Shown here: positions 13,945-27,909 of the stretch, one piece after another
Layout of the letters: every line of letters starts with the position of its first letter
Numbering within the stretch: the first letter of the stretch is position 1
Assembly (NCBI GenBank): GCA_964187785.1
Contig: OZ076409.1
Location: 21,576,001-21,640,000 of the forward strand
From: Amphiscolops sp. MND2022
Taxonomy: Eukaryota
Direction: 5' to 3'
DNA length: 64,000 bases
Program-made: the position numbers and the translations under genes
Notes under the pieces: generated by a model
What the model saw: the letters and a program-made list of their open reading frames with translations, nothing else
The model's database searches: none
What the model was told of the DNA's origin: nothing

Positions 13945-14276
13945 TGTTTTAAAGTAGCTCGAGTGGTTTTCCAGGCGAAAGCGTTTAGGTTCAATTCATT
14001 TATTGATATTCTATTTCACACAATGACAAATAATGGATGAACATTGATTTATATTATGAGGAGAAATAATTCAATCTTTTTCCATTCTCGTTTTCTCTCT
14101 CATCAGTTGGTTTTTCTTCTCTCTCTCTCTCTCTGGAGATTATTGTCCCTCGTCTCCTTTTTCTTTGGGTATTTCCCTTTTTCTCGAATTTTCTTTTTTG
14201 TCCAATCATGTTTGAGAATGCCATTCCTTCTGAATATCTTCATCCAAAAATAATACAAGTCATGATGAATATCACA
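13945..14276 (-). repeat. 3' LTR of element 2 (332 bp)
   Basis: Direct repeat of 27574-27909. By eye 3 substitutions plus a 4-bp (CT)n length difference. Confidence 0.96.
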
Positions 14277-15386
14277 GTCGGGCACTTTTTGAAAAAGCGG
14301 TACCATCTAGCGAATTTGAACCATTTTTTTTGCAAAAGTTTTGAATTGTGCCACAGTCCACCTGGAAGTCATGGGAGCATGCATATGTTTTTTAGAGTAT
14401 TTTTTTCGAGATTTTGGTTTCGGTCAAAGATTTTTTCAACTAGGCGAAATCCTTTCAGCACAATTGGCTTCATTCAGTCGAAAGGGAAATCTCATTTTTT
14501 TTTGTTTTCCAAAAGCTTTTAAGTCATTTGAATATACTTTGAATAATGAGATGTGAACATTCACTAATAGGTTTTCGTCTTTAAAGTAATGATTTCTTTC
14601 AATTTTCTTCCTTCCCCAATCAACTTTGCTGAGTCCAGTCAATTTCGGTAATGGGTTTTTGGAATAGAAATGCAGATAAGAAGATTTGTTTGAGGGCATT
14701 GGCTCCAATAATTTGTTTTTGTATAATTGAAGTTGGGTTTTCGGGATTGTTTGAGAACTCACTTTGTTCGGATAAAGGGATAAGCAATTTTCTTCGCTAA
14801 TGGGTTTTTGCTTTTACGAACATGACCTCTTGTTTGTTTTTCGGTCATGAACCCAATAATTGGCAAAGTTTGCAAGGGTTATCGAGTTTTTTCAGAGCCA
14901 AAATGTTGAAGTTTGTTCTTTTGTCACTTTTGTTCTTTTTGTGTGGTTGGTGACATCTTGTATGAGGGTCACGGTGGATGAACACCTCGAAGCTCTGTGT
15001 TGTGCCAACGGCACATTTCTGTCAATAAAAGGGGTGGAGACATCCTACGAAGAGGGTTGGGGGCATTTGTGCCCTGCAGCGTTAACGACTGCTGGAAGTG
15101 CAGCCCAAGAAGCAGGAAGTGTTGGCTCCAGTGGAAGGCGGCTCATCGCTATCGTGGCCGTACTGCGAGTAGCTGTCTTTTGAATCGACAGAGTGCTCAA
15201 GAGAGACAAAGATGATGCGTGCAACAACAAACATCATTATCTCCCCGTTTGTTTTGTTGTAGTATAGATGAAATTAGATTCAACTCAATTCGTGTAGTCA
15301 CTTTTCACGCAAAGATGAGTAATTGGGACTATTGTAATTGGGATAATTGCGTTGCTGCAGCCCTGTATTAGCTTTTCAGGATAGGA

Positions 15387-16761
15387 ATGCTTACTGCCAC
15401 GTACTGCATTGCATTAATCCAAATTGCTTTAACAATGACTAGTACGTATTGTATTGCTGATGCTGCTTCCCGCGACTACAGGGCCCACCGCGATGAAGTT
15501 AATTTCAAGTAAGTTGTTCATTTCTTTTCGAGTTTTGGGAAACTTCTAGGATGAAATTCAAAAATATGGCTCCATAGCCTTGAAGAATTTTGTTCGGAGA
15601 TTAATGTGAACTAATTTTCAAAGTCATATATAGAGTCAGATTGAAGGGCGTTCACTTTGAAAGTTGCGAAGTCGATCATTTTGTTCTGTTCTTACAGCGT
15701 TACTGACGCATCACAGTTGTCGGAACAGGATGCTGCGTTGCATAATTCTAATCAAAAACGCATCGAAGACATTTGGGAGTTCTTACGTGAGGGTTCTGCT
15801 ATGTTCCGTCTGGGCGTTCCCTCTTTCGACATTGTCACGTTGCAAGAAGGGGAAGAATTACCGTGTTTCCCAAGTGCTCCAACGAAGGTGATCGGAGGGA
15901 ATATTATTCGGCCTTCGCCAGATCTTGAAAAATTATCGAAAGAAAAGAATCTCACCCGACGGAAGTTCCTGAACAGGGTTATTGTAGAAGAAGACAATGG
16001 AGAGCGAGCGTGCCCTGTGCTGCCTGGTCCGACCATCTTCCTTGAATGTTACCTGCCCGCTGGAAAGGAGATGTTCAAGTACCTGAATTTCGGAGGGTCG
16101 CAGGAAAGAAGTTTCACTGCAACAAGAGGCTGGTGGTATACTGCGTCCCATTTCGAACCAGCAATGGGTGAGAGTGTGAGTCAACTGCTGTGTCCAGGTG
16201 ATGGCCGAAAGGTTCGGTATTGGTAATTCTAAAAAGAGCAAACACAACCAACAGGTCAGTACAAGAAATTTTATTGGTTTTTTTCTTTAGTTTTGGTTAA
16301 CCACCAATTGTGAGAGGACTGCCCGTCTCGCGTTGAACGCCTTCACCACTCTCAATTCTTTTCTGGATTTCGTCTCATTTGAACCCCAGAGATGGTACAA
16401 AGGGTTCCGCTGGTGCCTGCAGAGACCCGGAGAGACTGTGTTGCTGCCTGCTGGGTCGGTTCATCTGGTTGTAACAAGGCCCCCCGGTGGCGATCAAAGC
16501 TGCTAGACCTTTCTGCCTGGATACATCGGCTGGATTGAGGGTGTCGACCGGGAACGATTAATGCGTTCCATGCGCTGTGATTTCCGCAGAGGCTTCGAAA
16601 AGACTCCTGAAGAGATGGCAAAGTTGAAAGGGAACCACTGGGGGAAGTTTCAGGAGCTAGGTTTGGGAGCAAGCGGAACTGGAACTGCTCAACCCATCAA
16701 CAGCAGTAAAAAATCGAAGAAAAGGAAGCGTTGTAACGGGCGCTTCGTGAAATCAGACTAA
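15387..16761 (+). CDS. Antisense, spliced JmjC-domain (2OG/Fe(II) dioxygenase) gene inside element 2; one in-frame TAG
   Basis: Exons 15387(or 15435)-15508, 15698-16211 and 16291-16761. Introns GTAAGT..CTTACAG (phase 2) and GTTCGG..TCTTTAG (phase 0) keep the frame. Motifs YTASHFE, GRK|FWL, QRPGETVLLPAGSVHLV, C-terminal KKSKKRKR. TAG at 16504-16506. Confidence 0.85.
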
Positions 16762-16835
16762 GTATACATTTTTTTTTGAATTTCATGTATTTTTTTTTGT
16801 TTTCTTCCTGCATGCAAAGTGGACCGTGAATGAAG

Positions 16836-27057: not shown

Positions 27058-27387
27058 CTAATTTTCAGCGTCGTTACACGGATCCGAAAAGTTTCCCACA
27101 TACTCAATTAGTTCTTCAAAAGTATGAATGCAATTGATATTTGGGTCTAGAAGTGGTTGATAGTTTATCAAGGCAGTTTCTAATTGTTGCCATGCCGTAG
27201 TGTATTTGTAAACGAGCTGATGAAATACCTGGTGTGGTGCGTCGAAGGTGACTCCCAGTAAAAGGATAGGTTTTCCATATGACCAATAAATTCGTTTGAT
27301 TAATAGATCATCTTCTGGTGTAACCCATAACATGTGAACCGTGTGAAAAGCGAATTCAGGATTCAAATAATCGATGGAAATTTCCAT
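27058..27387 (-). CDS. ORF0, 109-aa protein of unknown function upstream of gag; homologous to 5307-5609
   Basis: Intact ATG ORF in the leader between PBS and gag. Motifs shared along its length with the element 1 ORF0. Confidence 0.8.
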   Translation of the reverse strand: MEISIDYLNPEFAFHTVHMLWVTPEDDLLIKRIYWSYGKPILLLGVTFDAPHQVFHQLVYKYTTAWQQLETALINYQPLLDPNINCIHTFEELIEYVGNFSDPCNDAEN

Positions 27388-27555
27388 TTGTTCGGTCTGT
27401 TTAAACGACTATTTCGGTGGTTGTAGATCGATCATGAATGTATTTTTGTTATAAGAAATACGAGAAGTTTGCGATTCCTTCAAATTCGGAGAATTCCTTC
27501 GGAAAATTTTGATTGTTTTGTTTTTGCATTGGTGAAGGTGATGGAGAATATCAAT

Positions 27556-27573
27556 GAGGACGCCTTGTCACCA
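27556..27573 (-). other. Primer-binding site of element 2
   Basis: TGGTGACAAGGCGTCCTC immediately follows the 5' LTR terminal CA. Cognate tRNA not identified. Confidence 0.7.
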
Positions 27574-27909
27574 TGTTTTAAAGTAGCTCGAGTGGTTTTC
27601 TAGGCGAAAGCGTTTAGGTTCAATTCATTTATTGATATTCTATTTCACACAATGACAAATAATGGATGAACATTGATTTATATTATGAGGAGAAATAATT
27701 CAATCTTTTTCCATTCTCGTTTTCTCTCTCATCAGTAGGTTTTTCTTCTCTCTCTCTCTCTCTCTCTGGAGATTATTGTCCCTCGTCTCCTTTTTCTTTG
27801 GGTATTTCCCTTTTTCTCGAATTTTCTTTTTTGTCCATTCATGTTTGAGAATGCCATTCCTTCTGAATATCTTCATCCAAAAATAATACAAGTCATGATG
27901 AATATCACA
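27574..27909 (-). repeat. 5' LTR of element 2 (336 bp)
   Basis: Direct repeat of 13945-14276, flanked by the PBS and the GTTAG TSD. Confidence 0.96.

Follow-up and report, generated by a model that had tools for sequence, protein, structure and literature searches.

A young env-bearing Ty3/Gypsy family in the genome of Amphiscolops sp. MND2022 with a putative antisense JmjC demethylase gene

Hosts silence long terminal repeat (LTR) retrotransposons by repressive histone methylation, and such elements are known to have acquired chromatin readers as well as DNA or RNA modifiers. An element that may carry an eraser of these marks lies on the minus strand, from position 27909 to 13945, of a 64,000-nucleotide (nt) stretch of the genome of Amphiscolops sp. 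MND2022 (assembly GCA_964187785.1, contig OZ076409.1, positions 21,576,001 to 21,640,000), denoted here as the window. Opposite to its gag, pol and env genes it holds two frames that resemble the halves of a JmjC oxygenase, and the question raised by this locus is whether these frames form a gene, what the gene encodes and of what use it could be to a retrotransposon. On balance, it is probable that the young 14.2-kb family to which this element belongs bears an antisense, likely spliced and selected JmjC gene encoding a demethylase of the KDM7/PHF8 type, which would lift the silencing marks of the host.

The antisense JmjC gene

The gene model lies beyond env and comprises the following parts:

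15801..16211, plus strand: JmjC exon A, 137 codons from the ATG, with T-x-x-H-x-E and the 2-oxoglutarate Lys at its end
16212..16290, plus strand: putative GT-AG intron of 79 nt, with predicted splicing and an internal CAG/GTCAGT
16291..16761, plus strand: JmjC exon B, 156 codons, with the distal His in Q-x-P-G-E...V-H-L-V and a basic tail resembling a nuclear localization signal (NLS)

Exon A ends in T-A-S-H-F-E...G-R-K, and exon B starts with F-W-L and continues through Q-R-P-G-E...S-V-H-L-V to a K/R-rich tail. Provided that both exons are joined, the product would have the H-x-D/E...H triad of JmjC oxygenases together with the Thr/Lys that serve 2-oxoglutarate. Among the copies of the family with coverage, the His and Glu of this iron triad are kept in 14/14 and the distal His in 13/14; the donor GT is likewise kept in 14/14 and the acceptor AG in 13/14. 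The spacer between the exons measures 71-81 nt, a length not divisible by three in 11/14 copies, and, in the 10 young copies, contains the end of the exon A frame; the internal CAG/GTCAGT would divide it into 43 + 36 nt. Exon A is free of indels in 11 of the 13 other copies, and exon B, open in 8 of the 10 young copies, is closed by a premature stop at codon 72 in the window copy. The antisense JmjC gene announced by a first-pass annotation of this DNA is present, as two frames with a likely 79-nt intron, the second of them prematurely stopped here.

The ratio of non-synonymous to synonymous substitution rates (dN/dS) was computed pairwise against one natural reference copy, the pairs thus not being independent, and pairs with misaligned ends were left out (integrase versus the C488 copy, ORF0 versus two old copies, env and exon B versus one old copy). 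For exon A the ratio was 0.14-0.33 (7 pairs, p from 0.05 to 2e-7), the most distant copy giving 0.23 (p=2e-7), and for exon B it was 0.25-0.40 versus three older copies (p from 0.02 to 5e-4). As judged from these codon changes, both exons are under purifying selection.

The nature of the domain was approached with a profile made from five intronless JmjC proteins borne by Gypsy elements of sister families. To this Gypsy-only profile exon A aligned over positions 151-173, with E=3.7e-4, and exon B, starting at position 179, with E=2.8e-12; in either case 0/500 shuffles scored as high. The best matches of the same profile in PDB were PHF8 and ceKDM7A (E=5e-5 to 8e-5), and a mixed profile that also included proteins of DNA elements retrieved KDM2A, PHF8 and KDM7A with E values between 5e-18 and 7e-14, JMJD6 following at 1.5e-7. 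When a low-confidence model of a sister protein was submitted to Foldseek, nearly all rows listed were JmjC proteins, with PHF2, ceKDM7A and PHF8 on top. The core T-x-x-H-x-[DE]...K...H is shared with KDM7/PHF8 and KDM2 (JHDM1), and basic C-terminal tails are found in four of the seven Gypsy JmjC proteins compared. The triad is kept in 102 of the 117 database homologues that cover all three positions (among the best 120 of 189 homologues); 119 of these 120 are unnamed ENA proteins and, because they possibly come from the same or a related genome, they show no wider range. The JmjC protein most likely works like a member of KDM2/7.

The family and the spread of the JmjC module

The termini of the element are defined by the following features:

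13940..13944: left copy of the 5-bp target-site duplication (TSD) GTTAG, repeated at 27910-27914
13945..14276, minus strand: 3' LTR, 332 nt, with no purine-rich polypurine tract (PPT) before it
27574..27909, minus strand: 5' LTR, 336 nt
27563..27573, minus strand: primer-binding site (PBS), 11 nt, complementary to the 3' end of tRNA-Leu(TAG) plus CCA, adjoining the 5' LTR

The near-identical LTRs, the 5-bp TSD and the PBS described in the first-pass annotation were all confirmed: over 332 columns the LTR pair, with TG..CA ends, shows 3 substitutions, to which one microsatellite indel is added, GTTAG stands on both flanks, and the PBS complements tRNA-Leu(TAG) genes of the same genome at their 3' end. 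A purine-rich PPT is absent before the 3' LTR in 10/10 two-LTR copies, all of which have a conserved but mixed sequence at this site, the tracts of sister families being more purine-rich. The gene order is ORF0, gag, pol, ORFx and env in the sense direction, with the JmjC-like gene and a small membrane-protein gene in antisense beyond env. With these LTRs, the short TSD, the tRNA PBS and a pol order of the Gypsy type, the element is a Ty3/Gypsy LTR retrotransposon, and more precisely an env-bearing one, probably of the F type, that is, an errantivirus in the broad sense, a kind already known. The initial label of "complex-retrovirus-like" is an analogy at most, the reverse transcriptase (RT) being closest to that of Ty3 among solved structures.

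The genome (1.07 Gb) was searched with env, giving 17 matches, 13 of them long, and all 13 long ones were examined. Ten, the window copy included, have two LTRs of 321-336 nt. The nine others of this set, 14,203-14,279 nt in length, match the window copy collinearly with 94-99% identity, and each has its own 5-bp TSD and an LTR pair 0-3 substitutions apart; the remaining 3/13, with ~90% identity, are older and either partial or rearranged. In the genome, a 162-nt LTR probe yielded 64 candidates, of which 40 were scored. Among the 10 young copies, the frame is open in 10 for ORF0, 8 for gag, 5 for pol, 7 for env, 10 for exon A and 8 for exon B, and every gene is unbroken in 3. The family is thus young. 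Intact copies exist, and a 14-kb, multi-gene anatomy proved to be its norm: because the other two-LTR copies are 14.2-14.3 kb long and collinear, and not units of 7-9 kb with gag, pol and env only, the data support the view that this env-bearing Gypsy family was recently active and has several accessory genes. The window copy itself is among the most damaged, with pol, env, JmjC exon B and the small membrane gene broken, and its broken pol and env rule out, for this copy, the infectivity initially deemed possible for the lineage. As to the accessory genes proposed at first, ORF0, ORFx and the antisense JmjC are present, and the additional antisense membrane gene had been overlooked. Beyond this genome, no locus was confirmed among viral contigs searched with an env alignment or among metagenome contigs searched with an RT alignment and a JmjC protein.

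The distribution of the JmjC gene within the genome was then considered. The Pfam JmjC search gave 150 matches and the exon B search 126, mostly in multicopy classes, and contexts were inspected at 14 JmjC loci and at 20 loci of ORF0, ORFx and RT relatives. An antisense JmjC gene was found in six of seven env-bearing Gypsy families, that of the window included. Three of the six sister families had been reached via JmjC itself; of the three reached via ORF0, ORFx or RT, two carry it. Its position is after env in two families, in the pol-env interval in two, and inside LTRs of 3.7-3.9 kb in two. The RT search gave 23,836 first-look candidates, and ten loci picked by RT comprised one with env and JmjC, one truncated in env and eight env-less ones without a JmjC match. 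In an RT tree of 14 elements, all from this genome, the env-less loci form a clade (98/100), around which the near env-bearing families branch in unresolved order, and the long-LTR families are remote (26-27% identity). The RTs of the JmjC-bearing families are 26-65% identical to that of the window family. In one family, JmjC scores 33-57 bits with the proteins of the remote families and no more than 5 bits with that of its RT neighbour, a resemblance suggesting that the JmjC module may have been exchanged between families.

JmjC genes and antisense frames were also observed in other settings. Two 18-kb env-bearing Gypsy families have LTRs of 3.7-3.9 kb, each holding a whole antisense JmjC open reading frame (ORF), and three other JmjC loci, 74-87% identical to this long LTR and with no adjoining pol match, look like solo LTRs. 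Eight env-less Gypsy loci of 13-18 kb have two or three antisense ORFs of 200-800 amino acids (aa) after pol, with no Pfam match in the pieces scanned. Two multicopy families of 19-kb elements (G000:C1:25632497-25651450 and G000:C1:26449831-26469195; copy pairs 99.6-99.8% identical) account for about 40 and about 14 JmjC matches, respectively, and each contains a SET domain, a JmjC domain above the Pfam cut-off and a BRCT-like domain. Their terminal inverted repeats of 21-25 nt start with CATTACA, with apparent 2-bp duplications, and no transposase was identified in them; we take these ends to be CMC/EnSpm-like. Finally, a repeat of at least 24 kb (G000:C7:15.17-15.19 Mb and C8:8.49-8.52 Mb) holds a split KDM2/7-like JmjC gene, and dozens of weak Pfam matches share a 164-aa frame of this repeat.

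The other genes of the element and its surroundings

The remaining features of the element are listed below in sense order, the antisense gene last:

27058..27387, minus strand: ORF0, 109 aa, of no known family, open in 10/10 young copies
25409..26392, minus strand: gag, 327 aa, with a CCHC zinc knuckle (weak match)
25412..25418, minus strand: A-AAA-AAC slippery heptamer immediately preceding the gag stop, in 9/10 copies, with a -1 frameshift predicted
20326..25445, minus strand: pol (protease, RT, RNase H, integrase, tail), in five pieces here
20764..21180 (approximate bounds), minus strand: degenerate macrodomain-like segment in the pol tail, without the TARG1-like motifs of a sister family
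19136..19492, minus strand: ORFx, 118 aa, of no known family
16836..19087, minus strand: env, resembling class I (F-type) fusion proteins, 751 aa in unbroken copies, interrupted near its 5' end here
14903..15183, plus strand: small membrane-protein gene, frame broken near its 5' end here

As had been described at first, gag is present and pol opens in the -1 frame relative to it, behind the heptamer. In five of the 10 young copies pol is a single frame of 1812-1813 aa, and the RT of the window copy lacks ~0.3 kb kept by the nine other two-LTR copies. The domain order is protease, then RT, RNase H and, last, integrase, with RVT_1, RT_RNaseH_2, Integrase_H2C2 and rve above the Pfam cut-off and a weak protease. 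In PDB, the RT matched Ty3 RT best (E=5e-32), followed by Pr125Pol/peptidase-A9 RT (4e-30), and HIV RT at 7e-9; Retroviridae ancestry was not borne out, since Ty3 is nearer than any retroviral RT in PDB.

The macrodomain initially assigned to the pol tail is clear in a sister family and weak and degenerate in that of the window. The sister tail is a TARG1-type macrodomain (TARG1/OARD1, C6orf130; E=6e-25), matched by 9/120 related database pols and with the motifs M-G-x-G-I-A, T-K and G-C-G-L-D largely present. These motifs are absent from the tail of the window family, which lies at the same position and matches a profile of 10 related pol tails at E=5e-4 to 9e-4, one of 200 shuffles scoring higher. 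This tail is under no significant selection (dN/dS 0.48-0.98). Its single-sequence model (predicted local distance difference test score, pLDDT, 44) has no Foldseek match at E<=0.001, macrodomains appearing at E 0.07-0.13, and a wider VIA search with the model placed no macrodomain among the top 50.

Env has a hydrophobic N-terminus (signal peptide), RQTR at 137 followed by a hydrophobic stretch, and a C-terminal hydrophobic segment; R-x-K/R-R sites occur in the env of four of six sister families. The gene is open over 751 aa in 7 of the 10 young copies, with dN/dS of 0.03-0.30, and the full length ascribed to it earlier does not apply to the broken window copy. No Pfam F family was matched, nor was any PDB entry with env as single query; a profile of eight env proteins matched a PDB "fusion protein" at E=0.003, and the Atlas features (0.94 to Fusion_gly/Baculo_F clusters, with low recognition) point weakly to F proteins.

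ORF0 has a homologue, 49% identical, at the same position in a sister family and is weakly indicated to be under selection (dN/dS 0.25 in clean pairs, p=0.06; the pooled value may be affected by misaligned pairs). ORFx, for which a sister family has a homologue of 45% identity upstream of env, is under purifying selection (dN/dS 0.13-0.38, p from 3e-3 to 3e-9). It gave 356 first-look candidates in the genome and no usable match in Atlas, and other repeats of the genome hold many distant homologues. Among these repeats are non-Gypsy ones, namely 6-7-kb units with 2-kb direct repeats and elements with Endonuclease VII or C2H2 ORFs.

The small membrane protein (85-87 aa) has a hydrophobic N-terminus, a Cys-Cys motif and a hydrophobic C-terminus. 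In the region of its gene (window 14880-15330), three alleles occur in 2, 4 and 4 of the 10 copies, 61-86% identical in DNA and 48-68% in protein, between flanks that are mostly 94-99% identical. Because the allele does not follow the overall relatedness of the copies, these sequences suggest that alleles have been swapped between them. Small antisense ORFs with Cys-Cys and transmembrane segments lie near JmjC in three sister families, with clear homology to only one of them (E about 2e-5).

The window contains further repeats and a host gene. A decayed, distant Gypsy element at 173-5600 (minus strand) has Retrotrans_gag, integrase, an ORF0 homologue (5316-5579) and, before the integrase, a macro-like frame at 1829-2533 (E=4.5e-26 to a local profile). 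It is followed by a 1060-bp tandem repeat in about five copies (7175-12040) and a Tc1-like transposase fragment (12805-13209). On the other side of the element lie an HRS/HGS-like host gene in one long frame (34807-36840, plus strand; VHS, FYVE and Hrs_helical) and two decayed LTR elements (44221-51965 and 52704-58668), whose repeat pairs are separated by 6.8 and 5.7 kb and which retain traces of integrase or RNase H. Elsewhere, at G000:C8:35.59-35.63 Mb, tRNA-3'-end-like motifs form a long tandem array, belonging to about 1000 genome matches; ARAGORN calls no gene in the 2 kb sampled.

Counter-silencing and its alternatives

The following scheme would account for these observations. Sense RNA would yield Gag, Gag-Pol (via the -1 frameshift) and Env, with tRNA-Leu as primer, and close to the 3' end another promoter, on the opposite strand, would drive the small membrane protein and the JmjC mRNA. 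The intron of the latter would stay in the genomic RNA and survive reverse transcription; its persistence in an element copied through RNA may be understood because the gene faces backwards and would not be spliced from genomic RNA. The JmjC protein, with a basic tail and no reader domain, would enter the nucleus and remove repressive lysine methylation (H3K9me2 and H3K27me2 are substrates of KDM7/PHF8), and the removal of the marks would raise transcription of the family. The hypervariable membrane protein is likely to face the host or a competitor, for instance as a superinfection-exclusion protein. Counter-silencing appears to be the most economical reading of a selected, KDM7-like enzyme with a nuclear-type tail in several mobile families; DNA elements of the same genome also pair JmjC with SET.

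A number of observations weigh against this proposal. Within the young copies, exon B shows 0 synonymous changes and at most 3 non-synonymous ones. Queried by itself, exon A matches neither Pfam nor PDB; it did not reach significance with the earlier profile built partly from proteins of DNA elements, and just two matches to it (identities of 95% and 75%) were obtained from 1.84 billion representatives. Exon B, half a domain, reaches E=0.024 and 15.5 bits versus Pfam JmjC (cut-off 24; an intronless sister protein scores 20.6 bits), and a search for matches to it among longer database proteins gave none at E<=0.01. The KDM7 assignment derives from the sister proteins, extending to the window gene by linkage only; the fold modelled for the sister protein is of low quality (mean pLDDT 41), and JMJD5/JMJD6 stand just below the KDM7 matches in Foldseek. 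The protein, of about 290 aa and highly diverged, has H-x-E instead of the H-x-D of KDM2/7, lacks the Tyr of their G-T-S-V-W-Y motif and, in a Pfam scan, contains no PHD, CXXC or other reader or targeting domain; the H-x-E motif and the missing reader bar its filing as a KDM2/7 member. Finally, JmjC is not essential, because one young env-bearing sister family has no detectable copy of it.

The main rival, to which a real although minor probability is given, is that JmjC acts as a genuine Fe(II)/2-oxoglutarate oxygenase on a non-histone target, as JMJD5 and JMJD6 do, or else as a non-catalytic decoy. Its target would then be RNA or a host protein of antiviral defence, splicing or translation. 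The presence of JMJD5 and JMJD6 in the top 20 Foldseek rows, the JMJD6 match of the mixed profile, the lack of reader domains and the departure from the KDM2/7 motif fit this possibility, as does an orchid Gypsy lineage that, according to PMC9289625, carries an AlkB-type RNA demethylase. However, KDM2, KDM7 or PHF8 comes first in both profiles, the tails are basic and NLS-like, and the joining of a KDM2/7-like JmjC to SET in DNA elements of the same genome points to chromatin.

The remaining alternatives concern the existence of the gene and of the unit as such. The exon A and B frames might stay unspliced, giving separate short products or an antisense RNA that itself regulates; GTTCG makes a weak donor, and 43 nt downstream, past an in-frame stop, there is a donor-like site of greater strength. 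This is improbable, given that the exons are collinear halves of one domain, that GT and AG are conserved while the spacer length varies, that a GT-AG gap of 32 nt, differently placed, interrupts the split JmjC of a sister family, and that both frames show codon-level selection. Still less credit is given to the accessory genes being passengers or relics, captured recently from the host or another element and unused by the family. The loss of four genes in the window copy, the lack of significant selection on the macro-like tail and the weak ORF0 signal would agree with it, but it is largely refuted for JmjC and ORFx by the purifying selection that comparisons between subfamilies show for ORFx and both exons, by the retention of JmjC in families with such distant RTs, and by the lack of a close host donor among the top Pfam matches examined. 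That the 14-kb unit is a chimera, produced by nested insertions into an ordinary gag-pol-env element, might be imagined from the homologues of ORFx and JmjC in unrelated repeats of the genome; it is ruled out by the collinearity, end to end, of 9/9 other young two-LTR copies of 14.2-14.3 kb, each with its own TSD, and the largest repeat families listed include no internal repeat pair.

The counter-silencing proposal can be set beside known systems. Env Gypsy elements of the F type are widespread (PMC13524379), and those errantiviruses resemble the present family in LTR-gag-pol-env-LTR structure, domain order (protease, RT, RNase H, integrase), tRNA PBS, an env with a furin-like site and a hydrophobic peptide, and several near-identical copies; the element described here differs in its 14.2 kb, ORF0, ORFx, macro-like pol tail and two antisense genes. 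The same source excluded LTR pairs >14,000 nt apart from its search and describes the bridge region of the "ancient" type as RNase H plus a mini domain; "JmjC", "macro" and "accessory" do not occur in its main text, nor did the supplements searched give a match. The closest functional analogue is the Phalaenopsis Gypsy lineage (PMC9289625), in which an Fe(II)/2-oxoglutarate demethylase is also fixed as an extra ORF and proposed to act against host surveillance. That enzyme is a plant AlkB-type 2-oxoglutarate-dependent dioxygenase (2-ODD) shown in vitro to act on N6-methyladenosine (m6A) in RNA, whereas here the element is from an animal, has env and carries an antisense split JmjC nearest to KDM7/PHF8. 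Among invertebrate Gypsy-like elements, bdelloid rotifer LTR elements with extra ORF3s (PMC5408684) and Oikopleura Tor (PMC4402516) share a paramyxovirus-like env and small transmembrane ORFs or captured enzymes, and plant antisense ORFs (aORFs; PMC7264820) share the antisense location between pol and the 3' LTR; the ORFs named in the accessible parts of these reports are GDSL, DEDDy, transmembrane or unknown, with no JmjC and fewer accessory genes beside env. The 823 transposon-chromatin fusions in the supplement of bioRxiv 10.1101/2021.11.30.470311 might include demethylases, the text itself containing neither "JmjC" nor "Jumonji". In the literature searched (titles and abstract openings, subscription papers being mostly outside), no LTR element with JmjC or Jumonji and no Gypsy element with macrodomain cargo was found, and the selected JmjC module, its six-family spread and the hypervariable membrane gene were likewise not found in print.

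A wider concept can be advanced tentatively: that a group of env-bearing Gypsy elements possesses its own KDM7-type demethylase as a movable antisense module, in some cases within the LTR, tied to a hypervariable membrane protein and drawn from a gene pool held in common with giant SET+JmjC DNA transposons. With its three alleles, the membrane protein could mark a cell-surface arms race. Six env-bearing families of one genome keep an eraser-type gene in three positions and, as some of the sister JmjC proteins are compact and intronless, enzymatic counter-silencing is directly testable. If the proposal is true, this family would represent a retrovirus-like element with a built-in anti-silencing enzyme.

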